Of a DNA stretch of 64,000 nt, positions 9,993 through 29,620 are shown piece after piece. Source of the DNA: a virus; IMG/VR virus record IMGVR_UViG_3300045988_162372; one strand, 5' to 3'. The notes under the pieces are model-generated. The model saw only the letters and a list, made by a program, of their open reading frames with translations, was not told the origin of the DNA and searched no databases. Made by a program: the position numbers and the translations under genes. Numbering within the stretch: the stretch's first letter is position 1; every line of letters begins with the position of its first letter.

Positions 9993-9995
9993 CTC

Positions 9996-10533: not shown

Positions 10534-11052
10534 TTATTTCCAAGTAACCTCTTTTTCGTTACCATTTTTATCATAATATGAAAACCAAAATTCTTTGGGT
10601 TCAAGAACAATAAGTTTATCCAATACATCTTTTGTGTATTTCTCAGCAACACCGTGTTTTACATAAGCAATAGTTGCATGGGGATGATATTCCTTATAGT
10701 CGGAATGAGTTGGATATTTGTCAGTAATAGCCTTATAAGAATTAAACAAAGGTATCGAACTTGCATCACACTTCAATACTTCAAAATCAGGATTATCAAA
10801 TGAAGATATGTTAGTAAGAAATGTTTGGTATTTATCCAAAGGCTCAAGCATATCTTTAAGCTTATTCAAATCGACATCATTATCAAGACAAGGAACAAGT
10901 GTAACATGAGTATCTGTTTCTATACCGTAACCGCTTCTACTGTCATCTCCATAATACAAATCATCTTCAGAAAGTTGTTCTTGTATGTCCTTAATAATAT
11001 CAGGCGTATTAAACCTAATCATTAAAAAAGCGTATTTCTTTTTATCTGCCAT
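10534..11052 (-). CDS. 2H phosphoesterase superfamily protein (LigT/CPDase-like; possible Acb1-like cyclic-nucleotide phosphodiesterase)
   Basis: Two H-x-T motifs at the expected spacing: TDT-H49-V-T51-LV and YHP-H125-A-T127-IAYV. Confidence 0.7.
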   Translation of the reverse strand: MADKKKYAFLMIRFNTPDIIKDIQEQLSEDDLYYGDDSRSGYGIETDTHVTLVPCLDNDVDLNKLKDMLEPLDKYQTFLTNISSFDNPDFEVLKCDASSIPLFNSYKAITDKYPTHSDYKEYHPHATIAYVKHGVAEKYTKDVLDKLIVLEPKEFWFSYYDKNGNEKEVTWK

Positions 11053-11071
11053 GTTATAAAATTATTATGTA

Positions 11072-12199
11072 TTATTTAAGACTTTCTATTTCAGCTTGTT
11101 CTTTCAGGTATTTTCTAAGACAATCACGGCAAAGCAGTTTTCCATATGTTTGTTCAGCAATCTGCATATCCATATATTCAGTTGTTTCAGAATCAGAAAT
11201 ATCATCACTATCATCATCAATATCTTTTCCTTGTGTGGGATTCAAGTCATCAATGGATGACGGGTCATAATATACTTCCTTTCCACATCTTTCGCATACA
11301 TATTTCTCTGCAAAATTATCAGTAAGGTCAAGTACACGTTCCTTTCTCTCATGGTTAGCATATTTATCAGCCATTTCTTTATTGTAGAACTGCTTAATCA
11401 TATCTTCACCATTTATAACAATATCAGCACTAAACCTTAAAATATAATCACCATCAAACTCCAATACCTTTTCAAACGAAAGGTTATTGAATTCAAACTG
11501 TATCATATCATTCAATTTGTACGCATGAAGTGTCGTAAATGCAACGGATATAATATCTAAAATATCAGATTTAATACCTTTATCCCTAATATTTTCAACT
11601 TCCCTTACAAAACCTTTTGAGATGAATACCTTATCATCAGGATATATGCTTACATAAAAATCAAGTTTAACAGTTTTTCCTGGGTATTTTTCAAATACGA
11701 CAAGTTTTTTGGTAAATTCTTCTATTTTATAACGTGGAAAGAAATTCCTTTTTACGTTCAAGGTATAACTCTTCTTAGGCTCAACATAGATTAAATGTTC
11801 ATCCTTGTAAAATGCATCTTTTAACCCATCATTAACACCTTCAATATTTCTTTCGTTAGGCTGAATGGTAATTACATTTAGATTTTCTGAATTTTCAAAC
11901 TTTACAAATTTACTGTCATATTTTTCATCCATTTTCTTTGCCAACGTAGGCGAGAAATACTCATAATGTTTTGCCTCCCTATCCACTGTATAAGTTCTGT
12001 ATCTAAGTTCTTTCACCTCTTGTGTCAATTCACCTTTAAGGAGAGCTTTTGAAACTCTATGCGACCCCACTTCCTGATTAACTGAAATCATATTGTCATG
12101 ACTTGAACCAAGTTGTGTGAATATTTCGTTTTCTGTATTTTTAAGACCGAACATTAATCCAGTCCATACATTATTTATCTTATCTTTAATTTTTCCCAT
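11072..12199 (-). CDS. hypothetical protein with C-terminal split Zn ribbon and acidic insert
   Basis: CERCGK ... DDDSDDISDSETTE ... CRDC near the C-terminus. Confidence 0.5.
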   Translation of the reverse strand: MGKIKDKINNVWTGLMFGLKNTENEIFTQLGSSHDNMISVNQEVGSHRVSKALLKGELTQEVKELRYRTYTVDREAKHYEYFSPTLAKKMDEKYDSKFVKFENSENLNVITIQPNERNIEGVNDGLKDAFYKDEHLIYVEPKKSYTLNVKRNFFPRYKIEEFTKKLVVFEKYPGKTVKLDFYVSIYPDDKVFISKGFVREVENIRDKGIKSDILDIISVAFTTLHAYKLNDMIQFEFNNLSFEKVLEFDGDYILRFSADIVINGEDMIKQFYNKEMADKYANHERKERVLDLTDNFAEKYVCERCGKEVYYDPSSIDDLNPTQGKDIDDDSDDISDSETTEYMDMQIAEQTYGKLLCRDCLRKYLKEQAEIESLK

Positions 12200-12202
12200 A
12201 GT

Positions 12203-12403
12203 TTATTCTAACTCAATATCCTTTATTCTTTTATCAATTTCATTTTCAAATTGAGTTTTTATAGTAAATAATTCTGAACGTACATCAAATTTATCTTTAT
12301 TTCCACCATTAATTTCAATATCAATATTTAATCTTTTAATTTTCTCATTAATAAGGTCAAAATAAGCCTTCAATTCCATTATTGACAATTCACTGATTTT
12401 CAT
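12203..12403 (-). CDS. small coiled-coil protein
   Basis: 66-aa ORF starting 4 nt after the upstream stop. Confidence 0.4.
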   Translation of the reverse strand: MKISELSIMELKAYFDLINEKIKRLNIDIEINGGNKDKFDVRSELFTIKTQFENEIDKRIKDIELE

Positions 12404-12468
12404 TTGAATAAATTATATTATATAGAAATTATTATTAATTCAATATAATAATAGACATATAAAAAATC

Positions 12469-12502
12469 AAGGTGGCATTCCTTGTAAGAGAAACACCACC
12501 TT
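12469..12502 (-). terminator. weak hairpin terminator after the GMP reductase gene
   Basis: aaggtgg / ccacctt 7-bp stem with a 20-nt loop, followed on the minus strand by a T-run (plus strand aaaaaa 12461..12466). Confidence 0.35.
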
Positions 12503-12531
12503 AGAAAAAATAAATTTAGGAATAACAAAAA

Positions 12532-13551
12532 TTATTTATTTACACTTTCTTGCGTGTTTTTAGAAATAACAACACAATCAACAAATTCAGGACAAAAATG
12601 TTCAATATCTGTTACATTCGTATAACTCATTGCGGAACGAAGATAGCTTTCCATATTTTCAACCCATGTGTTTAAATGTGTTGTAATGGGTAAATACTTA
12701 GTAATGCCTTCTGCGGTCTTTGTTTTCTTTCCGTTTATTACAATCTGTCCTTGCTTTGAAGCCATACCATAAATTTCCTTACATTTAACACCATCAACCT
12801 TAATTGTTTTAGCACAACTTTCATGTAATGACGCAAACAGGCTTCCAATCATTACATAATCAGCTCCCAATGCCAATGCTTTGATTACATCAGAATAATT
12901 ACGAATACCACCATCTGCAATGATATAAGGAAGTTTAGTACCCATAGAATCAGACAATAGTTGCAGACTCTGTTTAATTTCAAATACATCATTAATCAAT
13001 GAAGCCATAGGGTAATGGATAGACGTATTTGACGAAGTAATGCAGCATCCGCCACTACCAATTCCTACTCTAATATACTGTACACCAGCATTATAAGCAA
13101 CCTTATATGTTTCGGGATTTGCAATATTGCCAACCATAACAATGATATTATCTCCGTGAATTTTTTTAGCTTTCATAACATAATCATACATTAAATTCAT
13201 ATGCCCGTTGGCGATATCAATTAATGCCTTTGCAGGAGAATTAAACTTACCATATTCATTACAGAAACATTCATAGAATTCGTGAAGAGAATATGCAGAC
13301 CATCCACCAGAACAAGAATTGCCGTATCTCACGGTTATGTCAATGTTTCTCGGAAGAATTGCATTTATCTTGTTACTCTCAAACAAATGATAATTAAATT
13401 CATCTACAACACTGCTCATAGGCGCGGTAAATATAGGCAATTTACCATTTTCTTTATAAACATTGCATTCATCTCTATGTTCGATATATGAAACCTTTGC
13501 AGGTTTTACCATGATATCATTGTATGAATAAAGTGTCTTATCTAATAGCAT
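12532..13551 (-). CDS. guaC: GMP reductase (GuaC-type; IMPDH/GMPR family without CBS domains)
   Basis: Block-for-block similarity to E. coli GuaC as I recall it: IDIANGHMNLMYDYV (IDVANGYSEHFVQFV), VGNIANPETYKVAYNAGVQYIRVGIGSGGCCITSS (AGNVVTGEM...VKVGIGPGSVCTTR), IIADGGIRNYSDVIKALALGADYVMIGSLFA, YGMAS, AEGITKYLP. 339 aa fits GMPR size. Confidence 0.75.
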   Translation of the reverse strand: MLLDKTLYSYNDIMVKPAKVSYIEHRDECNVYKENGKLPIFTAPMSSVVDEFNYHLFESNKINAILPRNIDITVRYGNSCSGGWSAYSLHEFYECFCNEYGKFNSPAKALIDIANGHMNLMYDYVMKAKKIHGDNIIVMVGNIANPETYKVAYNAGVQYIRVGIGSGGCCITSSNTSIHYPMASLINDVFEIKQSLQLLSDSMGTKLPYIIADGGIRNYSDVIKALALGADYVMIGSLFASLHESCAKTIKVDGVKCKEIYGMASKQGQIVINGKKTKTAEGITKYLPITTHLNTWVENMESYLRSAMSYTNVTDIEHFCPEFVDCVVISKNTQESVNK

Positions 13552-13574
13552 AATAACATTATTTTTTAAAATTT

Positions 13575-14138
13575 CTATTTAACACCAGTACTGCCAAACC
13601 CATCAAGATTACGTGATTCGTTACTTTCAACTTCTTCTACTTGTTGCATATTCACTAATTCTTTACAATAAACAGGCATCAACACAGCTTGTGCAATTCT
13701 ATCCCCTGACGTGATTACAATGTCTTTCTTTGAAAGATTTACAGCAATAATACAAACCTCATTGACATAATTTGAATCTACAGTACCAGGAGTATTGAGT
13801 ACAGACAAACCGTGCTTCAATGCCATTCCGCTCCTTGGTCTTACTTGTATTTCACAATTTTCGGGAATGTTAAAATACAAGCCAGTATGAATAAGTTTTC
13901 TTTCAAGCGATTTTAATGTAATAGTGTATTTTCCTTCTTTTTTATCCAACTTTGCATTTTCGTCGCTTTCAGTAATATAAGCCCGTAAATCAAAACCACT
14001 ATCACCGCTATGTGCGTATTCTGGATTAGGATTATCAGACTTATTGACAAATTGCAAAATTTGAACGTCTGGCATATAGTTGTCAGGTTTATCATATATG
14101 CCACCTCTCATAAACATAGGTATCTTTCCAAATGTCAT
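13575..14138 (-). CDS. dut: dUTP diphosphatase (trimeric dUTPase)
   Basis: Motifs GDSGFDLRA, RPRSGMALKHG, GTVDSNY, GDRIAQAVL, C-terminal RNLDGFGSTG. About 45 aa of N-terminal extension, so the start is uncertain. Confidence 0.9.
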   Translation of the reverse strand: MTFGKIPMFMRGGIYDKPDNYMPDVQILQFVNKSDNPNPEYAHSGDSGFDLRAYITESDENAKLDKKEGKYTITLKSLERKLIHTGLYFNIPENCEIQVRPRSGMALKHGLSVLNTPGTVDSNYVNEVCIIAVNLSKKDIVITSGDRIAQAVLMPVYCKELVNMQQVEEVESNESRNLDGFGSTGVK

Positions 14139-14180
14139 ATTAAATTATATATATTATTGATAATTAATTATTCATCATTG

Positions 14181-14211
14181 CAAAGATACAATTTTTTTAT
14201 TAAAAAACAAA
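14181..14211 (-). promoter_or_regulatory. Bacteroidota sigma-A type promoter upstream of dut
   Basis: Minus-strand TTTG (14211..14208), 19 nt, TATCTTTG (14188..14181). The -7 box lies 42 nt upstream of ATG 14138. Confidence 0.6.
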
Positions 14212-14218
14212 ATAAAAT

Positions 14219-14242
14219 GGGATGTATTCGCTAATACACCCC
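14219..14242 (-). terminator. hairpin terminator after 14317..15000
   Basis: gggatgtatt cgct aatacacccc (one mismatch) followed by a T-rich run on the minus strand. Confidence 0.5.
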
Positions 14243-14316
14243 CTAATTAAATTATTGTTTAGCACAATGTACTTGACCAACAACGTGAAATAGCAATTTC
14301 ATTTGTTAATTATAAA

Positions 14317-15000
14317 TTATGATTTTCTTTTTTTATTTTTTCCAATATATTTCATCTGGCACTCAAATATGTTATTATCGCTATCAAGAAATAAGAATTT
14401 TTCTCCTAATTTCATTGCTTTTAACGAACTATTACTTCCATAACTTAAATTTTCATTAACCATCCCCTTTTTCAATTCATTTATCTTCTTATCAACAACA
14501 CTTTCAACAATGGTTTTTATTAACTCATAATCAACATTTACAGACAATGGAGTAGCATTATTATTTCCTTGTACTTCATTCAACTCTTGTCTATCTTGTT
14601 TTTCGAGCTTTTCTTGGATTTCATAAGAACGATTAAAACTATTAGGTAATGTTTGTTTTAATTTTTCTGTAAAAGCATCCATTTTAGGGTCAACGACAGT
14701 CATATCCAACGGGTTTGCTGCAATAGATTCGATAATTTGTCTTGGCAATTTGGAATGACTATAATCAATAGAGCCTCCATGTTCTCTTCTCTCTTTAATT
14801 CGTTTCATTTCCTCGTGAGGGTCATATCCGCTGGTTTTTTCAACCTCTCCATATACAGCCTTGTCTATATCATCCAAATTTCCGACAATAGGAGAATTGG
14901 ATGAAACAGTTCTTGCTTGTTTATGCTGAACGGCTTTTATACCGTTTTCCATTATCTGTTTCTGTTCTTTTGACAGAGCTAACTTTTCTTCAAGTGTCAT
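14317..15000 (-). CDS. hypothetical protein
   Basis: 227-aa ORF; no motif recognised. Confidence 0.5.
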   Translation of the reverse strand: MTLEEKLALSKEQKQIMENGIKAVQHKQARTVSSNSPIVGNLDDIDKAVYGEVEKTSGYDPHEEMKRIKERREHGGSIDYSHSKLPRQIIESIAANPLDMTVVDPKMDAFTEKLKQTLPNSFNRSYEIQEKLEKQDRQELNEVQGNNNATPLSVNVDYELIKTIVESVVDKKINELKKGMVNENLSYGSNSSLKAMKLGEKFLFLDSDNNIFECQMKYIGKNKKRKS

Positions 15001-15059
15001 ACTGTTTATATTAATTTATATGAGTTAATATATATTTAATATTCGGTAAAATCAATAAA

Positions 15060-15947
15060 TTATCTTCTCGGTATTTTACTTAAATCAATTTTCAAAGGAT
15101 TATCCAATTGTTGTCTTAATCTATCCATTCTTCTTTCCGTATCAGTTTTGTACAAATCATTATTACTATTCGTTTGATTATTTAAATTCTGATTACGCTT
15201 GGCCAACATATTTTGTAAATCCCTTATACTGATAGGTTCAGGCTGTTGATTGCTTTTGGCATTATTAGTTTTGTCAGAAGAAGTTGGTTCCGATTTTTGT
15301 CTAGGCCCAGATTGAGTTTGAACACTATTATTGGTATTGTATTGTCTAAAACCTTGTTTGGTTTTTATATCAGACAGTTTAATAGGATTACTCAACTGTT
15401 GTTTCAACCTTTCCATACGTTTCTCAGTATCAGTCTTAAATACATCATTGCTATTATTTCTTGCATTTTGCATTTGCTGATTATTCGTATTGGATTGGCC
15501 CTTCATTCTCGGAGAAGAATGATTAATAGGTTTGGTAATTTCATTGTTATCATTGTCATTACCAAATTTGGCGATTTTATAAACAACACTCATAGTATTG
15601 TCGCCATCAGGATTAAACTCACCCAAACCTTTGTAATAATTGTTTGCAGGTTCAGTAAAGATTTGTTTCGTAGGTTTCCAATAAGATATTCTATCAAGTC
15701 TGAAAAATTTCCAACTTGGAACACGTGAAGTCGTGTCCCCATAAGGTTGAAAAGCACGTATAACAGGATTACCAGCTTTTGTTAAACCATAGGCATACAC
15801 CTCAATTATTCTTGCACCTGTAGCTATATCTTCGCCTTTTGTATGATAGTTTATGATAATACGGGTATGTGTGTCAATTGCATCATTAACTGAATTAATT
15901 GACACAGATTCACTTAATAATATTCTATTTATACCCTCTAACATCAT
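15060..15947 (-). CDS. hypothetical protein: WYL-like N-terminal domain plus two copies of a ~30-aa motif in N/Q/S-rich linkers
   Basis: N-terminus IIINYHTKGEDIATGARIIEVYAYGLTKAGNPVIRAFQPYGDTTSRVPSWKFFRLDRISYW resembles the WYL beta-barrel pattern. Repeats are DVFKTDTEKRMERLKQQLSNPIKLSDIK and DLYKTDTERRMDRLRQQLDNPLKIDLSK. Confidence 0.45.
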   Translation of the reverse strand: MMLEGINRILLSESVSINSVNDAIDTHTRIIINYHTKGEDIATGARIIEVYAYGLTKAGNPVIRAFQPYGDTTSRVPSWKFFRLDRISYWKPTKQIFTEPANNYYKGLGEFNPDGDNTMSVVYKIAKFGNDNDNNEITKPINHSSPRMKGQSNTNNQQMQNARNNSNDVFKTDTEKRMERLKQQLSNPIKLSDIKTKQGFRQYNTNNSVQTQSGPRQKSEPTSSDKTNNAKSNQQPEPISIRDLQNMLAKRNQNLNNQTNSNNDLYKTDTERRMDRLRQQLDNPLKIDLSKIPRR

Positions 15948-15971
15948 AAGACATTTAATTTATTTACACTA

Positions 15972-16337
15972 TTATGGTACTTGGTATTGTCCTTCTAATA
16001 CATTAGCACTGGTATCTACCAATTTAGCAGAATATTGATATGTAGGATTATACAAACTACGACCCATAGCAGTACTTCTTGCTTCATTATCAGCATCATT
16101 ACCTGCGCCACTATCAGGATCAGTATCAAAATTACTATAATTGAATACACCTAATGTGCCATTACAGTTAGGAAGCCAAAATGAATGCCCTCCATGTCCA
16201 GTACCCTTACCTTGCGCATCACCCGTTGCCAAAGCGTCAGGATGTTTACCAGAATATTGATTATATTGATTATAATCGCTTCTTACAATTTCCTCATGAC
16301 GTTCATCCATTGAACGTATTTCCAAACAACTTTGCAT
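15972..16337 (-). CDS. hypothetical protein (Gly/Asp-rich)
   Basis: 121-aa ORF preceded by the late-type motif at 16371..16379. Confidence 0.5.
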   Translation of the reverse strand: MQSCLEIRSMDERHEEIVRSDYNQYNQYSGKHPDALATGDAQGKGTGHGGHSFWLPNCNGTLGVFNYSNFDTDPDSGAGNDADNEARSTAMGRSLYNPTYQYSAKLVDTSANVLEGQYQVP

Positions 16338-16370
16338 TATATAGTCTTGTTATAAGTCTTTTATTTTATA

Positions 16371-16379
16371 ATAAATATC
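16371..16379 (-). promoter_or_regulatory. putative late promoter core (sense GATATTTAT)
   Basis: 33 nt upstream of ATG 16337. Confidence 0.45.
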
Positions 16380-16443
16380 ATTGAATTAGAAATATATTTC
16401 TTAAAAACAGCATAAGTCTTTATTAAATAAAAGATAACAGAAA

Positions 16444-16479
16444 GTTATATCCGAAGATATAGATAAATTCGGATATAAC
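16444..16479 (-). terminator. hairpin terminator after the tail tube gene
   Basis: Perfect 12-bp stem gttatatccgaa / ttcggatataac with a 12-nt loop. Confidence 0.6.
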
Positions 16480-16506
16480 ATAACCTCAATTATTTGACAA
16501 ATGTTA

Positions 16507-16995
16507 TTAGTAAGCTAAAATACAATATTGAGGACGCAAAGTTAATTCGATTGTTGCCAAACCGTCATCCTCATAAGAAAGATCTCCAAAGTTGGAGCTT
16601 ACAATTTGACAATTTTTGCATATCCACAAACTTACAGTAGTACCAGTTGGATCAAGCATTTGAAGTTGAACATCACGTTTATATGCAACAGCATAACCCA
16701 TACGACCTGTTACAGATTCGGCATGTAAACGTACCCATTCCATTACAGCTTGCGAGGCAGAAGGGCCAATCGGGTCTCTTAATGTAACATTTATTTGTTC
16801 CCAATTATATCTACCTGCTACCCAGTTTGATGTATTTAAGAAAGGAATTTCGGTTTCTCCAATTGATATATTAGGACGGACAGTATTGCTAACCCACCAT
16901 TCTTGTATACCTAAATCTGATGGAAAACGCATCAAAAATCTATTTTTTCTTAACGGTTCGTATTCAATAGGCGATTTTATCAATAAATCTTCCAT
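16507..16995 (-). CDS. tail tube protein (T4 gp19 family)
   Basis: RKNRFLMRF (T4 RPNLFQVEI), IPFLNTSNWVAGRYNWEQINVTLRDP (T4 ...NRKINVAGDRTFDDWTVTVMNDE), SLWICKNCQIVSSNFGDLSYEDDGLATIELTLRPQY (T4 GLWPTNVGELQLDWDSNNEIQTFEVTLALDY). Confidence 0.8.
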   Translation of the reverse strand: MEDLLIKSPIEYEPLRKNRFLMRFPSDLGIQEWWVSNTVRPNISIGETEIPFLNTSNWVAGRYNWEQINVTLRDPIGPSASQAVMEWVRLHAESVTGRMGYAVAYKRDVQLQMLDPTGTTVSLWICKNCQIVSSNFGDLSYEDDGLATIELTLRPQYCILAY

Positions 16996-17026
16996 TTTAA
17001 GTTTAATTAGCTATTTATTTTTATAA

Positions 17027-17035
17027 ATAAATATC
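17027..17035 (-). promoter_or_regulatory. putative late promoter core (sense GATATTTAT)
   Basis: 31 nt upstream of the tail tube ATG 16995. Confidence 0.45.
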
Positions 17036-17202
17036 AGAATTATTACTTTTGCAGCGGAATTACAATATTAAATATATAAATAAATGGATAGAAAAGAAAA
17101 TTGTCATTAAATTAAAAAGTATATGGTGACAATATTGATACATCAATAGAGAATTTTAGTAAGTTCCTGCCGATACCACAAGAGGCTGTAGTTATCTTAA
17201 AT

Positions 17203-17430
17203 GTGGGCATAACTTATCAAAAAAAAAAAACAGAAGACGATATTATTTCTTTTAACGAAGATAAACTACATATTAATAATATTATTCAACATACTAAAGA
17301 CATAATTCCTCCTTTTAAAATTGATATATGCCTTCCAGATTATAGTACAGCGATTGAATATAATGGATTAATATGGCATTCTGAAAATTTAGAAAAGAAA
17401 TACTATCATCTAAAGAAAAATCGAAGAATA
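17203..17430 (+). pseudogene. relic of a homing-endonuclease-like gene (nuclease core only; truncated)
   Basis: DDIISFNEDKLHINNIIQHTKDIIPPFKIDICLPDYSTAIEYNGLIWHSENLEKKYYHLKKN aligns with ICDFITSFGIKAEKHNRTIIKPNEIDILIPEKNIGIEYDGLIWHSEKYKVDSNYHIGKTN of 17963..19417. The Zn-ribbon modules and C-terminal domain are missing. The ORF tail runs antisense into the 17447..17821 gene. A 12-A homopolymer lies at 17219..17230. Confidence 0.6.
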
Positions 17431-17446
17431 CCAAAAGTAATGGAGA

Positions 17447-17821
17447 TTAAATGTCTCCATTACTTGTTTGTTTATTATCTTTACTTTCAAATGCCTTATC
17501 TACTATATTCCATACCTTTTTAAGTAGCTGATACTGTTCTGATGTAGGATTATCAGCAAGTTTTGCAATAGCTTGTAAAGCTAACTGACGTATTTTATTT
17601 ATAGTATCAGTTACATCAACTTCGCTTCCACTCTCTTCTGGGGCGGTTTCAACTTCTTCCTCTTCTTCATAACCATCATTAAATTCATCAGGTTTTTCAA
17701 AGTCCTCTTCATTAACATCAGAAAAAATCATATTCTCAACAGTTAATTTAGGTTTACTAAGCAATTGTTTCATTTCGCTGATAAGTTGCTTACTATCTAT
17801 ATTTTGTTTCTTCTTTTCCAT
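17447..17821 (-). CDS. small highly acidic protein
   Basis: 124 aa with FEKPDEFNDGYEEEEEVETAPEESGSEVDVTD. Late-type motif upstream. Confidence 0.55.
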   Translation of the reverse strand: MEKKKQNIDSKQLISEMKQLLSKPKLTVENMIFSDVNEEDFEKPDEFNDGYEEEEEVETAPEESGSEVDVTDTINKIRQLALQAIAKLADNPTSEQYQLLKKVWNIVDKAFESKDNKQTSNGDI

Positions 17822-17846
17822 ATTTGATAAAGTAGATTTATATATT

Positions 17847-17854
17847 ATAAATAT
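17847..17854 (-). promoter_or_regulatory. putative late promoter core (sense ATATTTAT)
   Basis: 25 nt upstream of ATG 17821. Confidence 0.4.
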
Positions 17855-17896
17855 ATACTAACATAATTAAATATAGTAACATTTAACATTTAAAAC

Positions 17897-17927
17897 TTTG
17901 TTATTTATATATAATAATGTATATTTG
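17897..17927 (+). promoter_or_regulatory. Bacteroidota sigma-A type promoter for the nuclease gene
   Basis: TTTG (17897..17900), 19 nt, TATATTTG (17920..17927). ATG at 17963. Confidence 0.65.
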
Positions 17928-17962
17928 CACAGCAAAACTTAGCAATACAACGAAGTTATAAA

Positions 17963-19417
17963 ATGAACGGTAAAAACCAATTTCCAAAAGTAACTACTGA
18001 AAGTATTATACAAAGATTTATAAATAAACGTGGAGATGAATATGATTATTCTCACGTAATATATAAAAATATGCATACAAAGGTTGCTATTGGTTGTAAA
18101 ATACATGGTATATTCTATCAAACCCCTCATAATCACTTAAAAGGACAAGGATGCCCAGAATGTAGTAAAAAGAAAGTTGCAGATGGACGTAGAATGTCAA
18201 AAGAAGAATTTATCAGAAGAGCAAAAGAGAAACATGGTAACAAATATGATTATTCAAAGGTTGAATATATAAACAATAGAACAAAGGTGTGTATTATTTG
18301 TCCTATTCATGGTGAATTTTGGCAGACACCTGATGAGCATTTAAGATATGGTTGTAAAAAATGTTCTGTAGAATATATTGCTCGAAAAAGAATAGAAAAT
18401 TCTGCTAAAACATTTGAACAAAGAGCAGGTGAAATACATAATTTCAAATATATTTATGAAAAAGATACTTATAAAGGAAATGATAATTTAATAACTGCAT
18501 ATTGTCCTATTCATGGTAAATTTACACAAATTGCGCATTATCATTTACAAGGTTATGGTTGCCCTAAGTGTGGAATAAGAAAATCTGAAAATGAGGATAA
18601 AATATGTGATTTTATTACTTCTTTTGGAATTAAGGCTGAAAAACACAATAGAACAATAATCAAACCTAATGAAATTGATATTCTTATACCAGAAAAGAAT
18701 ATAGGGATTGAATATGATGGCTTAATATGGCATTCTGAGAAATATAAAGTAGATTCTAATTATCATATTGGCAAAACTAATAAATGTAAAGAAAATAATA
18801 TACAATTAATTCATATATTTGAAGATGAATGGTTAGAAAAGGAAAATATAGTTAAATCAAATATATTAAATATATTAGAAGTATATGAAAATAAAATATT
18901 ATCCGATAATTGTGTAGTTAAAAACGTTTCACCTCAACAAGCTAAATATTTTCTAAATAACAACTATATTAAGGGAGAATGTCGAGCTAAAATACATTTA
19001 GGTTTGTATTATAATAATGAATTAATTTCTTTAATGTCATTTTCTAAATTAAAAATATTAAAAGGTGATGTATGGAAATTAGTTTGTTATTGTAATAAAA
19101 TTAATACAAGTATTTTAAATGGGGCAAATAAATTACTTCAATATTTTATAAAAAAAGAATTGCCATCTAAAATTATTACTTATGTTGATAAACGATGGAG
19201 TAATGGAAAAGAATACGTCGAAATGGGATTTACTTATACAAATGACACTAAGCCTGATTATTTCTATGTTATAAATCAACATAGAATAAGTCGTTTTAAA
19301 TATAAAAAGAATGATTTGACACAAAAAGAAATCTATAGAATATATGATTGTGGTTCAATGTGTTTTGAAATGAATTTAAACAAAAAAAAGAGGACTAAAT
19401 ATATAAGTCCTCTTTAA
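17963..19417 (+). CDS. free-standing homing-endonuclease-like protein: 3 Zn-ribbon modules + Vsr-like PD-(D/E)XK core + GNAT-like C-terminal domain
   Basis: Repeated module (KYDYS.V.Y....KV.IICPIHGEFWQTP..HL.G.GCP.C), then NEIDILIPEKNIGIEYDGLIWHSE...IQLIHIFEDEW, then a C-terminal domain shared with 51928..53625 (ends EIYRIYDCGSMCF). Confidence 0.65.
   Translation: MNGKNQFPKVTTESIIQRFINKRGDEYDYSHVIYKNMHTKVAIGCKIHGIFYQTPHNHLKGQGCPECSKKKVADGRRMSKEEFIRRAKEKHGNKYDYSKVEYINNRTKVCIICPIHGEFWQTPDEHLRYGCKKCSVEYIARKRIENSAKTFEQRAGEIHNFKYIYEKDTYKGNDNLITAYCPIHGKFTQIAHYHLQGYGCPKCGIRKSENEDKICDFITSFGIKAEKHNRTIIKPNEIDILIPEKNIGIEYDGLIWHSEKYKVDSNYHIGKTNKCKENNIQLIHIFEDEWLEKENIVKSNILNILEVYENKILSDNCVVKNVSPQQAKYFLNNNYIKGECRAKIHLGLYYNNELISLMSFSKLKILKGDVWKLVCYCNKINTSILNGANKLLQYFIKKELPSKIITYVDKRWSNGKEYVEMGFTYTNDTKPDYFYVINQHRISRFKYKKNDLTQKEIYRIYDCGSMCFEMNLNKKKRTKYISPL
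17990..18574 (+). repeat. three tandem Zn-ribbon DNA-binding-type modules (protein-level repeat)
   Basis: GDEYDYSHVIYKNMHTKVAIGCKIHGIFYQTPHNHLKGQGCPEC / GNKYDYSKVEYINNRTKVCIICPIHGEFWQTPDEHLRYGCKKC / NFKYIYEKDTYKGNDNLITAYCPIHGKFTQIAHYHLQGYGCPKC. Confidence 0.8.
19387..19415. terminator. bidirectional hairpin between the convergent nuclease and sheath genes
   Basis: aaagaggact / agtcctcttt perfect 10-bp stem with a 9-nt loop. It lies inside the last codons of the plus-strand gene. Confidence 0.55.
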
Positions 19418-19435
19418 TTTTTATTGAATATATTA

Positions 19436-22400
19436 TTAAGCATCTTCCCAAACTGTACCTTGTGGGGTAATAACAAATTCCAATTCAATGTATTCCAATG
19501 TAGGTGTAGGCTTGATATAAATCTTAGCAGGAAGTCTTAGTTGCTCTCTTGCTTCAACACTATCATCAATTTCCAAACGCCAGTCTGTAATACCCCTATT
19601 ACTCATTATATTATCCAAGATAGGAGTGATTGCACTTTCAAATGATTGCTTAGTAGTATTATCATTCGGATCGAAAATCAAACCAATACAAGCAATAGAA
19701 CAAAGTTTTCTAATTCTTAACAGTAATCTACGTTTAGATATTCTATTCATCTGACTTTCTCTTACTTGTAAGTTCTTGTCTCCCCAAATTCTCATACCGT
19801 CTTGTGCAAATGTATTTACGAAGTTAATACGCCCATTATAAAGGGTATCTTGGTCATCTAACTTCAACATTTTCTTTGGTTTAACTCCATCTATCGACCC
19901 CCTGTTCCAACCTGAAGCAGCATACCAAGGGAATGCGATATTATCAGTATAAGCGAAGTTTCTTACCACATCTTTTGTTGGTGGCAGGAACACATATACG
20001 TTGTTATCACTATCAAAATATTTTACATTAGGATAGTATGTACAAGTATAATTACTATCAATATCAGCATCTTCCAAGTTGTAAACTGCGTCATCAGGAG
20101 TATACATTTCGCTTTCAGTATCACCTGCGCCGAAAGGTTTATCAGGTGTAGTTACCACATATACAGAATCTGCACGTTCATTTTCAACCATGTCAATCAC
20201 TTCACCAACAAGCGTAGGGTTATTTACATAGTCAATACCAGGAGTAGCTAATACATTGATGTCTATTTCTTTTGGATTGGAGAACAATCTTGCACCATAT
20301 AAATAAGCATAGTAGTCAGAATTCAAACACTTGTCAGCGACATCAAAGTTGTATTTCTCAGGCTCTTTCAAAACAGAGAAATAAGTACCTTCACCACTTA
20401 TAGTGTTTAAGTTACCACGATATTTCTGGTATCTGAAATCATCCCCAATACTTTTTGAAGTACGGTAATAATCCCATCCATCCCATCCACCATAAAATGC
20501 TACAGTGAATTTTCTATATCTTTTATCTTCGTAAATGGTATTAACCATTGTATCTTCGTCACCAATTCTAGGTTCAATACCCATAGATGTGGTAACATTC
20601 TTATTAACTGTAACCCAAGTATAACCAGAAATAGTATCTACTGTAACGGTTTGAGTATTTCCTTGTTCATCTGTTATTACACCAGCCTCATTAGGCACAC
20701 CATTTAATATACGTGCATCCAAGTGAAAACAAGGGCTTAACCCTTCAGGCTCTCCATTGTAAGCTTCAACACCTTTATATTTCAATATATCCTCATCAAT
20801 ACCAGTAATATCAGAGATACCAAAATATTGTCTATTAATTCTTATATCATCATCGACAGTGGTATTATATTGGAAATAAGGTTGTACGGGGTCTTCTGTG
20901 CAGTGGACAGTCGAAGCGTAGAATTGGCTATTAGAATCAAGAGCAGCAATTCTGCTTATACCTTTATAGTTTCTGATAGGATATCCTAAGAAACCAGCAG
21001 GTATTGAAACCTTAGTCTTATCAGTTTCATTCACTTCTACTGTAATGTAGTTGGAAACTGCTTCATACTGTTCATCATAAGAACCAATCTTTAATGCAAT
21101 ATAATTGCTACTACCTGGGATTAAATCACATTGTGTATATCTTTCCAACACAGACTGAGAAGCATCAGTATCATAGAAACTTCTAACAATAACGTCAAAA
21201 GTACCATTTTCAGGGTCAATATTCTGTATTGAAACCTTAACTTCAGTATTAGCATTGTCACCGTCAGAAATAGTATGGAATCTGAACAGCTTGGTTAATT
21301 CAACATGTTCAGCAGAACCCTTCATTTCAGATACAATCCACGGAGTAGAAGCACATCTATATTGTTCCTTGTAATTGTTCATATCAAGCGTGATAGGTTC
21401 AATGTCACTATCATCATCCTTCATTACATAATACAAACCATCTTCTAACACTTCAACAGCGTCTTCAAATATCTCATTTTTAATAGTACTCTTACCGCTC
21501 AGATACTCTGTCTGATAATTTCCTGTCGTTTGGTCATCGCCCTCCGCATTTTGGTATTCTCCATAGTAATATTCTCTTGTACCATCGGATGTGGTATAAG
21601 CCACTACGGTGTAAATATGCCCAGGTTTACCATTAGTGGAACTCCAACTTCTACCGTTATTTCTTGAAATGTGTACTGTAAGCGGGGTTGTATTGTCTTT
21701 ATCGTTTACGGATTCTGCCGCTGAATACAAGAAACGCTTTCCTACATCTCTTCTTTGCAACGTTGATTCGTCATCAGTAAGAATTGCATCAACCGAAGCA
21801 TGTTTAGGAATAATTCTTGTAACAGGATAGAATTTCGTGCAATTGTTAATTTCAGTAATCAATCCCCTCTCAATTAATTGTTGTAATGCAACATCATACA
21901 ATTCTTCAACGTAAATTTCGGCATCACCCACTTCAGGATCTCCACCTATTACATTGTAAATATAATTTTTTTCATTCTTGTTTAGTGTTACCGAATATCT
22001 CTTTTCAACACCATCAAATCTCTTAACAACAATTGTAAATGTTCCATAATTCGTAACATTAACATTAAATGAGTTTTCAGAAGGAGTATAACCAGGATTA
22101 CAATCCAAGCCTAAAGTCAATGTTTTACTTGGTTCAAGTTTAACATCTGTTGCATAATATTGGATTTTATCATATTCATACTCATCTTCACAAATACCTA
22201 TCTCAGGTTGTTTGGCACGTAAAAATGCAGCTTTCTTATGTTCACCTCTTGAACGCAATACAGCAACAACCATATTATCATAAGTTTTGTCTTCAGAATC
22301 AGTAGCACCTGCCGTTATAATCCATGCAGGCCCAGCATTTACACCAGATAAACCAAGAACTCTTACTACCTGTAATTGGTCTGACTGTTGCAGATAGGAC

Positions 22401-22660
22401 TTGGCGATATATGGTAATTCGTATTTCAGGTATTGACTTCCACGGAACTTTTCAGGATTAGTTCCACCGAAATATGTAGTAAACTGTCTCCAATTCTCAA
22501 TTGCAAAAGGTTGAAATGCAGGCCCTTTAACAGTTTCACCTACCAATCCAAGAGTGGTGATACCAAGTGACTTGGAAGCGTAGGTAAGATCTGTTTCTTT
22601 GGTATATATACCAGGACTAACATGTACACCTCTCACGCTATTGCTATTGTTATTTGCCAT
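19436..22660 (-). CDS. contractile tail sheath protein (gp18-like, enlarged)
   Basis: N-terminus VHVSPGIYTKETDLTYASKSLGITTLGLVGETVKGPAFQP is the typical sheath start (PGVY..E.D). 1074 aa. Lies close to the tube gene. Confidence 0.75.
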   Translation of the reverse strand: MANNNSNSVRGVHVSPGIYTKETDLTYASKSLGITTLGLVGETVKGPAFQPFAIENWRQFTTYFGGTNPEKFRGSQYLKYELPYIAKSYLQQSDQLQVVRVLGLSGVNAGPAWIITAGATDSEDKTYDNMVVAVLRSRGEHKKAAFLRAKQPEIGICEDEYEYDKIQYYATDVKLEPSKTLTLGLDCNPGYTPSENSFNVNVTNYGTFTIVVKRFDGVEKRYSVTLNKNEKNYIYNVIGGDPEVGDAEIYVEELYDVALQQLIERGLITEINNCTKFYPVTRIIPKHASVDAILTDDESTLQRRDVGKRFLYSAAESVNDKDNTTPLTVHISRNNGRSWSSTNGKPGHIYTVVAYTTSDGTREYYYGEYQNAEGDDQTTGNYQTEYLSGKSTIKNEIFEDAVEVLEDGLYYVMKDDDSDIEPITLDMNNYKEQYRCASTPWIVSEMKGSAEHVELTKLFRFHTISDGDNANTEVKVSIQNIDPENGTFDVIVRSFYDTDASQSVLERYTQCDLIPGSSNYIALKIGSYDEQYEAVSNYITVEVNETDKTKVSIPAGFLGYPIRNYKGISRIAALDSNSQFYASTVHCTEDPVQPYFQYNTTVDDDIRINRQYFGISDITGIDEDILKYKGVEAYNGEPEGLSPCFHLDARILNGVPNEAGVITDEQGNTQTVTVDTISGYTWVTVNKNVTTSMGIEPRIGDEDTMVNTIYEDKRYRKFTVAFYGGWDGWDYYRTSKSIGDDFRYQKYRGNLNTISGEGTYFSVLKEPEKYNFDVADKCLNSDYYAYLYGARLFSNPKEIDINVLATPGIDYVNNPTLVGEVIDMVENERADSVYVVTTPDKPFGAGDTESEMYTPDDAVYNLEDADIDSNYTCTYYPNVKYFDSDNNVYVFLPPTKDVVRNFAYTDNIAFPWYAASGWNRGSIDGVKPKKMLKLDDQDTLYNGRINFVNTFAQDGMRIWGDKNLQVRESQMNRISKRRLLLRIRKLCSIACIGLIFDPNDNTTKQSFESAITPILDNIMSNRGITDWRLEIDDSVEAREQLRLPAKIYIKPTPTLEYIELEFVITPQGTVWEDA

Positions 22661-22694
22661 CTATAATCAGATTTTATCGTATTATTAGTTATTT

Positions 22695-22703
22695 ATAAAT
22701 ATC
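22695..22703 (-). promoter_or_regulatory. putative late promoter core (sense GATATTTAT)
   Basis: 34 nt upstream of the sheath ATG 22660. Confidence 0.45.
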
Positions 22704-22743
22704 ATTAAAAATACCAAAGTGAGATATTTATAATATAGAATAG

Positions 22744-23100
22744 TTATCTAAAATCAAATATATTATTAAGGTTATCAATATCTTGGATTGTCAAGTTTAT
22801 TTTGTTGTTTTTCACTACTTTTTCAATATTAATATTATCCTCTACATCAATAGTTATTTCGCTATCAAATACAGAAGAATATAATATCTTTTGATTTTCA
22901 GTCATATTGTTAAAATCGACATTCTCTCCACAAATCATATTCAACCGTTGAAATACAAATTCTTCCATCTCTATTAATTGTTTATACAGTTTGTATAAAG
23001 CAAAAGCAAGATTCGCAGGAAGATTGATTTGTTGTGCAATAATCTTATCAATAGTCTTACTTAGATTAAACCCATATGAAATAGAAATAGTTTTCTGCAT
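22744..23100 (-). CDS. hypothetical protein (start 23100 preferred over 23166)
   Basis: MQKTISISYGF... The longer version would overlap the upstream gene by 11 nt and begins with hydrophobic low-complexity residues. Confidence 0.45.
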   Translation of the reverse strand: MQKTISISYGFNLSKTIDKIIAQQINLPANLAFALYKLYKQLIEMEEFVFQRLNMICGENVDFNNMTENQKILYSSVFDSEITIDVEDNINIEKVVKNNKINLTIQDIDNLNNIFDFR

Positions 23101-23155
23101 ATAATATATAAATGTAATAACTTTATCACTAATTAAGATATTACAAAATAATAGG

Positions 23156-24280
23156 TTATTCAACAATAATCTCTTCTGATTTCACAGGTTCATCATTTGC
23201 ATTTTCGGGAGTGTTTATTTTATCATATACAGTTGACGGATCATAACCAATGAATTTCAAAGATGACTTTTGGTTAACATCAAAATGTCTTACCCTTATC
23301 TTGATGTTATCTCCGTTTTTTACTTTAAATCCTTTGTCAATATAATAAGGTGTATCATTCACGGATAACCTTATTTTTCTTATATTTGTTTTTTCAATGG
23401 TTTCTATCACCATATCGGTATCAATTGTAAATTCTACCTTGTCATGGTATTCTTCAAAGTCTATAGATAGTTCCAAAGATTTATTTTCATAAACATCATC
23501 ATATTCGATAATATCAATTTTTGGCTTTGATTTATTGGTATCACCATCACCGAATAACATTATTCTTTTTGGTTTTTTCTCTACTTTGAAGTCATCTTTA
23601 TTAATAATATATGCCATTACTTTTATGACAAATGACTGCATAAAGAATTTACGTTCATCAACAGAATAAGTTGATTCATCATTTACTGAATCAATTACCA
23701 TAGGTATAAAATGGTCATTAGGACGAATATAACATTGCCTTGCACTGAATAGTTTGTTTATCTTCTGGTTGAATACATTTAGCATAGCAAATTTATCGGT
23801 AATAAAATTTATTCTATACATTAAATCAACAGCAAAAGGTTGTTTCATAGAATATATTTCATAGTGTTCAGTTCCATTATCATCCATTACGTTTCTAATC
23901 CTTAACGTGTAATATCTATCTCCTGGAATATTCCATAACCCCCCTTGATTATCGCCAGTTTCAGGATTATTATCTCTTGACACTGTTTTGAAATTCAATA
24001 ATAGGTTTCCGTTTTCATCAGTATGTTGCCATGATTGACTATATTCATTGAATCTTTGGTTTGAATACCAAGTAAAGGTAGGAATTTTCTTCCCATCAAA
24101 CTCAATATCTATCTTAGTATCCACAAATTCAAGTACAGCTTTGTCTATATCCTCATATTCCAAAGGTTTAGGAAAATAAGGCTCATTATGCATTATTTCT
24201 TTTGTATAGTTTTCACGTCTTTCTCGTCCAAATGCTTTTTCTCTATATTTGATAGGGGTTATGTATTTTTTAGGCTGCAT
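23156..24280 (-). CDS. hypothetical virion protein (possibly neck or tail-completion, by position only)
   Basis: 374-aa ORF two genes upstream of the sheath. No motif recognised. Confidence 0.4.
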   Translation of the reverse strand: MQPKKYITPIKYREKAFGRERRENYTKEIMHNEPYFPKPLEYEDIDKAVLEFVDTKIDIEFDGKKIPTFTWYSNQRFNEYSQSWQHTDENGNLLLNFKTVSRDNNPETGDNQGGLWNIPGDRYYTLRIRNVMDDNGTEHYEIYSMKQPFAVDLMYRINFITDKFAMLNVFNQKINKLFSARQCYIRPNDHFIPMVIDSVNDESTYSVDERKFFMQSFVIKVMAYIINKDDFKVEKKPKRIMLFGDGDTNKSKPKIDIIEYDDVYENKSLELSIDFEEYHDKVEFTIDTDMVIETIEKTNIRKIRLSVNDTPYYIDKGFKVKNGDNIKIRVRHFDVNQKSSLKFIGYDPSTVYDKINTPENANDEPVKSEEIIVE

Positions 24281-24306
24281 ACTTTAATGTTGTTAATTTT
24301 AATATA

Positions 24307-24828
24307 TTATATTCCATCAAATTCATCTCTCGTCACTGGCGCGCACTCAATTACAAGCCACGGAGATTTATAAGCACCAACAACCATATTGTTCGCATTA
24401 TTTATCTTTCCGTCACTTATGACAGAAAAATAATACATGTCATTTGTATCATTCAATACACCAATATAATCACCTCTTTTAATATCACATTTATATGTTT
24501 TTAAAGTATTTTTTAATATATATACGGTAAGATTTCCACTTAACATATATACACCGCTTGATGTTTTATCATCAAACGTCTTTGTTTGAGCTTCTTTTAT
24601 TTCATATAAACAAGGCAATTCTTTTGGAGGTTTAAACCTTATATTCCTTTTATTCGGTGTTTCGTGGTATATGTCATTTGTATTTGTTTTTATTCTATCA
24701 ACTTCATATAACACAATCGTCTGATTAGTATCTTCTTCCATATAGTCAGATAGCAATTCAGTTTCTAATTCATAATCCTCTTCGGAATAGAATAAATTAT
24801 TCCTATTTACTGGTGCATTTATTGGCAT
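24307..24828 (-). CDS. hypothetical protein
   Basis: 173-aa ORF at the head of the minus-strand tail block. Confidence 0.45.
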   Translation of the reverse strand: MPINAPVNRNNLFYSEEDYELETELLSDYMEEDTNQTIVLYEVDRIKTNTNDIYHETPNKRNIRFKPPKELPCLYEIKEAQTKTFDDKTSSGVYMLSGNLTVYILKNTLKTYKCDIKRGDYIGVLNDTNDMYYFSVISDGKINNANNMVVGAYKSPWLVIECAPVTRDEFDGI

Positions 24829-24854
24829 GATTAATAACTTTTTATATAAATAGT

Positions 24855-24885
24855 TTTGCTTTTACTATACAAAATAGTATATTTG
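24855..24885 (+). promoter_or_regulatory. Bacteroidota sigma-A type promoter for the SNF2 operon
   Basis: TTTG (24855..24858), 19 nt, TATATTTG (24878..24885). ATG at 24907. Confidence 0.65.
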
Positions 24886-24906
24886 CAAAAATAATATTTT
24901 ATATAA

Positions 24907-26754
24907 ATGGGTGAGCAATTAAGTATCAGAAAGATTAAAAAAGCATACGATATATTAAAATTTTACAACGGAGATAATAATCAAATTCTTCTTTATCAGA
25001 ATGAATATAAGAATGGAAGTTTTGTGTTGAATGATTTTTCGTACAAATATATTACTTCCAATCAAGATTACACACCGTTACAGATAAATAAAACAATTCG
25101 CATATCCTCTGATTACGGCAACATATTAAAAGAAAAATACAATATAGATTTTATTCCAAACAAGGTAAAAATCACTAAGATAATAGGGGAAATGAATAAC
25201 AGTTATCATTGCTATGTGCAATATAGACAAAGTATCCCCCCTCAACTTATGTATGTGAATAAAAATTACATCATAGATAAACTATTTGATAATAAAACAG
25301 ATTCTTATGAGAATATAGATTTTGATAAATACGATAAATTAGCCGAAAAAAATGGTAGAAAACTAAAACCTCACCAAAAAGAAGCTATAAGATTCCTTCT
25401 TACCAATAAAAAATGTATTTTAGCTGATTCAATGGGTCTTGGGAAAACACTAGATACAATTGTTGCGGCTTTGGAAGGTGGTTTCAAACATATACTTGTA
25501 ATTACGACTGCATCTGTAAAAAGTACATGGAAAAAAGAAATATCTTATTATGAAGATGAAGATAACATTGCAATAATGAGCGGTTCTAAATGGGTAAATG
25601 CAAAGAAATTTACTATAACAAACTATGATATAGTACAAAATTTCTATCAAGTTCCATATGAAGCAGTTGAAGAACTCGATGAAAATGGAGAAGTGATTGT
25701 AAAACTTAGAAAATCACAAAAAAAGGAAGTAATAAACGAAAGTTTAATGAAAAGCCCTTTATTCCAAGAACATTTTGATTGTGTAATTATTGATGAAGCA
25801 CAAAAATTATCAAATAAAACCTCAATAAGATATAAGACAATTTATGATTTTCTTCATAGAGCTAAACCAGAAGCAGTTTTTTTAGTCACTGGAACTCCTT
25901 TGACAAATAAGCCCATTAATCTTTATAATATATTATGTCTTATAGATGCTGATATTACAAAAGATTATAATTATTATTGTATGAGATACTGCGATGGCCG
26001 TAAAATGAAACTAAGAACAGGAAAAATAATCTTGCTTAATAACGGAGCAAGCCATTTGGATGAATTAAGAGAAAAAATTAAACATTTATATATAAGAAGG
26101 TTACAATCTGAAACAAATGGAATGGTTAGTAAAACAGTATTAACAAAAGAATATGATTTAAATGAACAACAAAAAGAAATATATAATACATTATGGGATA
26201 ATTACTTACAAGCCAAGAAAGAATTAGGTGTTGATGATGCAGAAAAATACAAAGATCTAGTGGAAGGTATAATTGTAAGGCAGTATTTGGCTAAAGAAAT
26301 GATACCTAATACTATTGAATTGACCGATGACCAAATAAATTATGGCGAAAAAGTAATTATTGTATGTACATTCCAAGAAGAAATTGATATACTGAAAGAA
26401 CATTACGGAAGAAAAGCTGTTGTTTATAACGGTAAGATGACGGCCAAAGCAAAAGATAAAGCCGTTGATAGTTTTATGAATAATCCTAATACAACAGTAT
26501 TTATTTGTAATTTAACCGCCGCAAGTGTAGGTATTACATTAACAGCATCTCATTACATTATATTTAATTCATATTCATGGGTAAGTGCTGACAATAAACA
26601 GATGGAGGATAGAATTTATCGCTTAACACAAGATAAAGATGTGACTTGTGTATATCAAATGTTTACGGATTCTATTTCAAAAGAAATGTATGATATTGTT
26701 AAAAATAAAGAGCTGATAGCCGAAGAAGTTATCAAGACTGAAAAGGACAAATAA
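24907..26754 (+). CDS. SNF2/RAD54-family helicase
   Basis: LKPHQKEAIRFLL, ILADSMGLGKT (motif I), VIIDEAQKLSN (motif II), LVTGTPLTNKP (motif III), and a C-terminal helicase lobe (VFICNLTAASVGITLT...QMEDRIYRLTQ). Confidence 0.85.
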   Translation: MGEQLSIRKIKKAYDILKFYNGDNNQILLYQNEYKNGSFVLNDFSYKYITSNQDYTPLQINKTIRISSDYGNILKEKYNIDFIPNKVKITKIIGEMNNSYHCYVQYRQSIPPQLMYVNKNYIIDKLFDNKTDSYENIDFDKYDKLAEKNGRKLKPHQKEAIRFLLTNKKCILADSMGLGKTLDTIVAALEGGFKHILVITTASVKSTWKKEISYYEDEDNIAIMSGSKWVNAKKFTITNYDIVQNFYQVPYEAVEELDENGEVIVKLRKSQKKEVINESLMKSPLFQEHFDCVIIDEAQKLSNKTSIRYKTIYDFLHRAKPEAVFLVTGTPLTNKPINLYNILCLIDADITKDYNYYCMRYCDGRKMKLRTGKIILLNNGASHLDELREKIKHLYIRRLQSETNGMVSKTVLTKEYDLNEQQKEIYNTLWDNYLQAKKELGVDDAEKYKDLVEGIIVRQYLAKEMIPNTIELTDDQINYGEKVIIVCTFQEEIDILKEHYGRKAVVYNGKMTAKAKDKAVDSFMNNPNTTVFICNLTAASVGITLTASHYIIFNSYSWVSADNKQMEDRIYRLTQDKDVTCVYQMFTDSISKEMYDIVKNKELIAEEVIKTEKDK

Positions 26755-26823
26755 CATTTTGAAATATTAAAGTTAATAAGAATAGAATAATCATACTATT
26801 TATTATATATAAAGTCAATAACT

Positions 26824-29609: not shown

Positions 29610-29620
29610 TAAAAATAATA

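Follow-up and report, generated by a model that had tools for sequence, protein, structure and literature searches.

Phage homing endonucleases of the Hef type have been placed in the Vsr-like EDxHD nuclease family (Taylor et al. 2011, PMC3239194). Hef of phage U5 has been reported to cleave nrdB, and in phage LIMEstone1 Hef-like genes are listed beside the tail tube gene. Jumbo phages also encode Mom domains fused to nucleases of the restriction endonuclease (REase) fold, and these fusions have been read as restriction-modification-like (Iyer et al. 2021, PMC7824862). The Mom protein of phage Mu (8bv8, PF25680) is a Gly-tRNA-dependent adenine-N6 DNA aminoacyltransferase. A series of fractured genes with split inteins and a free-standing endonuclease gene has been described as well (Dassa et al. 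2009, PMC2677866). Here we analyze six genes and gene relics that touch on all of these systems. They lie in a 64,000-nucleotide stretch of DNA, hereafter the window, from IMG/VR virus record IMGVR_UViG_3300045988_162372, a T4-like jumbo phage of low GC content (~31%).

An earlier note, made from the sequence of the window alone, had described these six items as one expanded family of nuclease genes, and translation confirmed each open reading frame (ORF) and each relic at its position (Table 1). Our reading, to which we assign a probability of roughly 0.85, is that the genes belong to the Hef-like branch of the Vsr-like (EDxHD) homing endonucleases and are free-standing. Genes are named below by their first coordinate in the window.

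The endonuclease genes and their nuclease domain

The three long genes match one another in BLASTP comparisons with E values of 1e-43 to 1e-50 (2e-50 for 17963 versus 26824, 6e-47 for 17963 versus 51928), and both fragments are also linked to them. By sequence similarity, five of the six items demonstrably form one family. The short gene 3201 had no BLASTP match to the other copies, and its profile scores identify it, weakly, as a remote DUF559/Vsr-like relative; of the six-member family originally proposed, BLASTP and PHROG assignments retain five. A six-frame search of the window found no further copies. Recent intragenomic duplication was rejected as the source of the paralogues, and separate arrivals are favored, because the copies in the window are only 31-46% identical.

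All three long genes fall into phrog_559 or phrog_3339 ("HNH endonuclease", "homing endonuclease"; E 1e-74 to 1e-103). A tblastn search with the product of 17963..19417 matched 1066 phage records, several of them annotated as Hef-like homing endonuclease, and matches covering more than 90% of the protein fall in genes that carry the annotation "putative Hef-like homing endonuclease" (PTm1/PTm5, BUCT_49532). The earlier note had been unable to assign the architecture to any characterized family. That statement is not supported, given the Hef-like EDxHD assignment by PHROG and annotation and the published REase-Mom fusion (PMC7824862). Domain searches upheld the nuclease assignment, returning PHROG homing endonuclease families and an I-Bth0305I-like nuclease fold.

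The two relics were identified by comparison with G001, the nearest record that we used. The relic near the tube gene overlaps a fragment ORF that spans 17203..17523. It is 86% identical at the nucleotide level to the middle of an intact 567-aa gene of G001 (55099-56799), and in BLASTP it shares 68% amino acid identity with this gene, which occupies the same site (E 7e-28). The relic at the polymerase is 84% identical in amino acids to residues 593-630 of an intact 634-aa gene (G001 72251-74152; E 2e-21).

Structure prediction addressed the nature of the nuclease. The AlphaFold (AF2) model of the 51928..53625 protein has a mean predicted local distance difference test (pLDDT) value of 89.7, and the nuclease domain modeled alone reaches 88. 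The best Protein Data Bank (PDB) match of the nuclease-domain model is the catalytic domain of I-Bth0305I (3r3p; template-modeling (TM) scores 0.61/0.71, 25% identity). NGO0050 (DUF559-like) ranks third, followed by RAP/FASTK-type domains, and Vsr (1vsr) ranks eighth. A hidden Markov model (HMM) profile of the whole protein found no Mom, I-Bth0305I or Vsr in the PDB by sequence; fold comparison alone matched them. In the 51928..53625 protein, D305 is shared by all of 63-64 homologues, and H323 and D354 by nearly all. These residues, with H323 following an aromatic pair, are the equivalents of Vsr D51, H69 and D97, and the corresponding segments of 17963..19417 read EID, IWH and FEDE. The core motif E-Y-(D/N)-G-x-x-W-H, which had been ascribed to all copies, is exact in 17963, 51928 and the 17203 relic and takes variant forms in 26824 (E-C-Q-G-V-Q-H) and 3201 (E-I-D-G-D-Y-Y-H).

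The N-terminal regions differ among the copies. In the 17963..19417 protein, three Zn-ribbon (C-H-C-C) repeats come before the Vsr-like nuclease, and the active site of its Mom-like GNAT domain is degenerate. Four such repeats precede the nuclease domain in 26824..27960, which is without the Mom-like domain. The repeat unit comprises about 60 residues (…KYDYS…CPIHGEFWQ…GCxxC; Pfam DUF723, DUF4379) and is N-terminal in both proteins. Zn-ribbon repeats, earlier taken as a feature of the whole family, are found in these two only; 51928..53625 instead combines an N-terminal helical region and two C2H2/ROS-MucR-type fingers with the Vsr-like nuclease and a Mom-like GNAT domain whose active site looks intact. 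We preferred the ATG at 53625 as its start over a longer frame from a TTG at 53724: a promoter-like box separates the two, and homologues are 558-571 aa long. When the last 300 residues of this protein were used as a database query, more than 4500 proteins matched, in which a shared nuclease and tail stand behind swappable zinc-finger N-termini (ROS_MUCR, zf-Di19, DUF723, Rua1_C).

Occupancy of the insertion sites in related phages

G001 is an IMG/VR record of 216,649 bp, collinear with positions 769..64000 of the window at 92-98% nucleotide identity, and this collinearity is broken at the endonuclease sites. A near-identity search of the phage collection gave no match to the window. Intact genes, relics, a fused stub and clean absences are distributed differently over the two phages (Table 1). 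The G001 gene of 385 aa upstream of pol encodes Zn-ribbons and a nuclease and is without the Mom-like domain. Only 51928..53625 and 3201..3770 are common to both phages.

As the earlier note had placed them, the inserts neighbor conserved phage genes, namely those for tube, sheath, an SNF2-type helicase, a polymerase-exonuclease-like protein, PhoH, the major capsid protein (MCP) and PolB; the sheath-tube gap additionally holds a 124-aa ORF (orf124).

Sequence divergence is concentrated beside one of the inserts. The exonuclease gene downstream of 26824 has its start codon (27945) within the stop region of that gene. Over the 50 bp immediately right of this insert, identity to G001 is 74%, versus 92-98% farther off, and the N-terminal residues of the exonuclease gene are altered relative to G001 (window 27937-27990). 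We regard 27937-27990 as a candidate cleavage site with putative protective polymorphisms. On a larger scale, identity to G001 changes in successive blocks (91.8%, 95.3%, 93.7%, 98.5% and 98.2%), with steps at 17154/17433, 26754/27937, 31112/31141 and 34258. These mosaic boundaries coincide with endonuclease genes, as where identity steps up from 93.7% to 98.5% at the site upstream of pol, and call to mind a published account of nuclease genes as markers of recombination boundaries (PMC10448857).

More distant relatives extend this pattern. The site downstream of MCP, which 51928..53625 occupies in the window, was surveyed at 79 loci; it is empty, or holds different subtypes in either orientation, or is decayed; it is empty in L018, L019, L026, L027 and L063 and contains relics in L016 and L017. 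In L092, L113, L117 and L121 the sheath-orf124-tube interval is compact, and many other relatives have one or two such genes there. These sequence comparisons make it well supported that the endonuclease genes behave as mobile elements. Related genomes, which by the earlier note would have refuted mobility had they shown vertically inherited core genes at the same loci, instead revealed empty, occupied and decayed sites, which favors mobility. The homing-type behavior once suggested for the whole set agrees with the differences in presence, absence and decay relative to G001 and with sporadic occupancy in relatives; it does not extend to 3201..3770, for which mobility was not shown.

Table 1. 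Features of the window, with the corresponding state of each site in the nearest record, G001.
Feature	Position in window	Strand	Basis	Site	State in G001
Intact Hef-like homing endonuclease gene, 484 aa	17963..19417	+	phrog_559, E 3e-103	sheath / orf124	stub, first 52 and last 94 bp fused (body 18015-19323 gone)
Hef-like gene relic (nuclease-core fragment, IEYNGLIWH) in tube gene / orf124 gap	17195..17451	+	comparison with G001	orf124 / tube	intact 567-aa gene
Intact endonuclease gene, 378 aa	26824..27960	+	phrog_559, E 1.5e-74	helicase / exonuclease	cleanly absent; helicase stop, TC and exonuclease ATG adjoin
Intact Hef-like gene, 565 aa from ATG	51928..53625	-	phrog_3339, E 1.6e-94		
3' relic of Hef-like gene (...YRIYDCS..., C-terminus of Mom-like domain) between polymerase halves	34236..34418	+	comparison with G001	PolB split site	intact 634-aa gene
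Short DUF559/Vsr-like endonuclease gene, 189 aa	3201..3770	-	DUF559 E 1e-3; phrog_559 E 8e-4		
28 bp without insert	31113-31140			upstream of pol	intact 385-aa gene, 68025-69179 (locus L006)
PolB N-terminal part (to ...EPIVGD) fused in frame to N-intein, 850-aa ORF	31679..34231	+	Pfam DNA_pol_B and exo domains		
C-intein (33 aa) fused in frame to PolB C-terminal part, 550-aa ORF	34396..36048	+	sequence and relatives		
Bacteroides-type promoter-like box (TTTG ... GTATATTTG) upstream of 17963 gene	17897..17927	+	consensus match only		
Bacteroides-type promoter-like box (TTTG ... GTATCTTTG) upstream of 53625 start	53653..53684	-	consensus match only		

The split intein in the polymerase gene

The relic said to lie inside a polymerase intein does so: split intein halves flank it on either side, and relatives carry contiguous inteins there with which the halves are collinear. 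The N-intein begins at 33656, with SFTEDTPLF (block A) and VTEDHSLF (block B), and ends in a degenerate LAGLIDADG-like tail. The C-intein begins MKVQ... and includes YVYDISLDG (block F) and NILSN (block G); the C-extein, TDGFNF, follows from 34495. Joining the exteins restores PolB motif C (IVGD-TDGF). The intein halves were unrecognised by Pfam at normal thresholds, and intein matches in the PDB and Pfam were weak.

We surveyed motif C of PolB in 80 relatives. The gene is uninterrupted in about 36 of them. About 11 carry a contiguous LAGLIDADG intein of 355-358 aa at the exact split point of the window (including L136, L149, L190 and L195), and in about 25 the two halves of a split intein are separated by one or two Hef-like genes (including L127-L135, L139 and L143). 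In a few relatives, as in the window, the intein is split and the endonuclease gene has been lost (including L144 and L174). Judged from this layout, PolB of the window is a "fractured gene" with a predicted split intein at motif C, in which the inserted endonuclease gene has decayed. The tail of the window N-intein (…KKYFLDRFEHY…) resembles a decayed second LAGLIDADG helix. Apparently, a Hef-like gene invaded an intein that already carried its own endonuclease domain.

The Mom-like C-terminal domain

The earlier note had seen a GNAT-like C-terminal domain in two copies, degenerate in one of them, and both observations are borne out here. The top PDB fold match of the full 51928 model is phage Mu Mom (8bv8_B / 8bv8_A; Foldseek E 1.5e-6), ahead of about 50 ordinary GNATs, and the alignment covers about 205 columns versus the 202-residue Mom chain. 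The viral structure library BFVD returned stand-alone phage Mom proteins, one at a TM score of 0.68. Alignment of the tail profile with a profile of 30 Mom-family proteins gave an hhalign E value of 3.7e-5 over 125 columns; a comparison with a single Mom sequence yielded a meaningless 21-column match, and the family profile was required. Compared at the level of whole chains, Mom has a helix-turn-helix (HTH)-like insertion that its activity requires, and in the 51928 model an insertion of helices (residues ~518-544) precedes the final two strands.

The tail and Mom have in common the blocks ELNR (containing Mom R111) and SFADxR (D149 and R151), together with the His equivalent to Mom H58. In Mom, H58, R111, S124, D149 and R151 are essential or important (PMC13219725). 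S124 aligns to a Gly in the 51928 tail, inside an H-x-x-G-x-G/A loop that resembles the classical GNAT cofactor loop. The score of the tail against Pfam Mom (PF25680) is 18.5 bits, below the gathering threshold of 27.1, and just 6 of 63 homologues reach E 0.01; we therefore consider the tail Mom-related and not a PF25680 member by the curated cut-off.

Among 35 distinct Mom-like domains sampled from this phage clade, 27 keep the pattern H-R-G-(G/A/S)-D-R. The domain of 17963..19417 reads Y-C-N-A-D-R, with the His and Arg equivalents lost. Like 26824..27960, 3201..3770 does not carry the domain. With its active-site residues intact, the Mom-like domain of 51928..53625 is probably an enzyme acting on nucleic acid. 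Its acyl donor may differ from that of Mom, given the Gly in place of S124 in the cofactor loop. The degenerate copy in 17963..19417 suggests that the domain is dispensable for mobility.

Promoter-like boxes and neighboring genes

The host-type promoters reported earlier for 17963..19417 and 51928..53625 are present as Bacteroides-type boxes (Table 1). Both are matches to the consensus and no more, and the window shows no enrichment of the loose Bacteroides-type pattern (10 found versus 8 expected from shuffles). In DNA this AT-rich, a scan for sigma-70 promoters was not informative (33 found versus 22 expected). Six intergenic TTTG…GTAT(A/C)TTTG boxes lie upstream of genes, at 14181-14211(-), 17897-17927(+), 24855-24885(+), 31586-31616(+), 53653-53684(-) and 58680-58710(-). 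They precede helicase, polymerase and two endonuclease genes, among others.

The sheath gene (19436-22660, minus strand) is unusually long, at 1074 aa. Its C-terminal half alone matches sheath families, and its best match in a cultured phage, Microcystis phage Mel-JY01, is 32% identical. A 13-bp perfect hairpin at 17435-17465, terminator-like on either strand, marks the junction between the tube-side relic and the 3' end of orf124.

Discussion

Each protein joins a variable N-terminal zinc-finger or zinc-ribbon array to a conserved Vsr-fold nuclease. The genes occupy short gaps between essential phage genes and the inside of a polymerase intein, and they have been gained, lost and eroded between phages that are 92-98% identical. 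A homing cycle can be proposed on this basis. The zinc-finger array would read a long DNA site, and the nuclease would cut the homologous, gene-less allele of a co-infecting relative. Recombinational repair would then copy the gene and its flanks into the cut allele. Once the gene is fixed in the population, selection would lapse and the gene would decay by deletion, which would account for the two relics of the window and the stub in G001.

Several points weigh against the assignment to Hef-like homing endonucleases. The phage is uncultured, and the homing reading is based on comparative evidence. Later papers and annotations, not direct comparison, provide the link to U5 Hef. In 26824..27960 the equivalent of the third catalytic Asp is not evident. 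The mobility of 51928..53625, which is kept in G001, rests on more distant relatives only. The short gene 3201..3770 is kept by G001 and by a second close relative, and its whole neighborhood is missing in more distant relatives. Finally, the Mom-like active site conserved in 27 of 35 domains has no part in a simple homing model.

This last point raises the question of what the Mom-like domain does. It could be a non-catalytic structural or DNA-binding module, one that positions the nuclease as, for example, a base-flipping clamp or dimerisation surface. The Mom fold itself binds double-stranded DNA, with a flipped adenine modeled (PMC13219725), the Pfam Mom score falls under the gathering threshold, and the intact, polymorphic 17963..19417 has lost its His and Arg equivalents. 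However, most copies keep H-R-G-x-(G/A)...D-x-R and a canonical GNAT cofactor loop, a conservation difficult to account for unless the domain binds a ligand or is catalytic, and we consider a purely structural role possible at odds well short of even.

A different proposal is that the nuclease-Mom fusions are single-chain, restriction-modification-like conflict systems, in which the Mom-like domain acylates adenines of the phage's own DNA and the nuclease attacks unmodified DNA of the host or of competitor phages. The fusion of an REase fold to a Mom-family GNAT is real, equivalents of Mom H58, R111, D149 and R151 persist in those 27 sampled domains, and such a reading has been published for jumbo phages (Iyer et al. 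2021, PMC7824862). It is also compatible with homing. Yet copies that lack the domain (26824..27960 and the 385-aa gene of G001) or carry a degenerate one (17963..19417) are intact and equally polymorphic. Moreover, divergent paralogues and decaying relics in core-gene gaps and an intein suit selfish elements better than defense, and the equivalent of Mom S124 is Gly. We judge this proposal unlikely.

That the genes are domesticated, vertically inherited replication or repair genes is highly improbable and largely refuted for five of the six items, remaining for 3201..3770 only: 51928..53625 and 3201..3770 are indeed conserved between the window and G001, and two copies have promoter-like boxes of the type that precedes helicase and polymerase genes, but near-identical phages differ in presence, absence and decay of the genes, and the same sites sporadically hold different subtypes and orientations.

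Within the homing interpretation, a more speculative role for the Mom-like domain can be imagined. It might be catalytically active as a site-directed DNA base acyltransferase and modify the very site that the enzyme recognizes, so that the carrier genome would be immune to self-cleavage. We regard this as doubtful. If true, the protein would constitute a mobile, single-chain restriction-modification unit able to invade sequences too conserved for protective mutations. The GNAT cofactor loop would in that case point to acyl-CoA as donor, not Gly-tRNA, and possibly to an undescribed DNA modification.

Two near-identical jumbo phages and dozens of relatives amount to a natural experiment in which the empty site, invasion, fixation and the deletion relic are all captured, as are stages of intein fracture at defined sites. 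They provide ready substrate pairs for studying cleavage specificity. The same substrates could address the role of a conserved, apparently active Mom-like acyltransferase domain on a homing endonuclease.

The closest known systems are Hef of phage U5 and the Hef-like genes of Acj9, CP220, LIMEstone1, PTm1 and PA5oct. As in the window, these are free-standing between conserved phage genes, with several copies per genome, and proteins annotated as Hef-like, including BFVD matches, resemble the window copies over their full length. However, the window copies are only 35-40% identical to those of cultured phages, and their N-terminal DNA-binding modules vary from copy to copy. I-Bth0305I and the EDxHD family offer the same nuclease fold and the same Asp, Trp-His and Asp positions, and the EDxHD family is associated with split inteins. 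I-Bth0305I, in contrast, is intron-encoded, has NUMOD/HTH modules and ends at the nuclease, whereas the window has free-standing genes that rely on zinc fingers or ribbons and, in two cases, add a Mom-like domain.

Mu Mom resembles the C-terminal tail in its fold, in the ELNR and SFADxR blocks and in the equivalents of H58, R111, D149 and R151. The tail differs from it in being fused to a nuclease, in having Gly for S124, in its sub-threshold Pfam score and in its degeneration in 17963..19417. The Mom-REase fusions of jumbo phages (Iyer et al. 2021) have the same architecture and also occur in several copies per phage, and PA5oct proteins are among our structural matches; those authors read them as restriction-modification systems, whereas the comparative data presented here show mobile, homing-type behavior. 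The PolB layout matches the fractured genes of Dassa et al. (2009), with a Vsr-like gene between the halves in G001 and the window at the "endonuclease lost" stage. It differs in that a B-family phage polymerase serves as host gene and in that relatives have a contiguous LAGLIDADG intein at the site. Each of these features had been published before: the family, its Vsr-like nuclease, the fusion of Mom type and the layout of the fractured gene.

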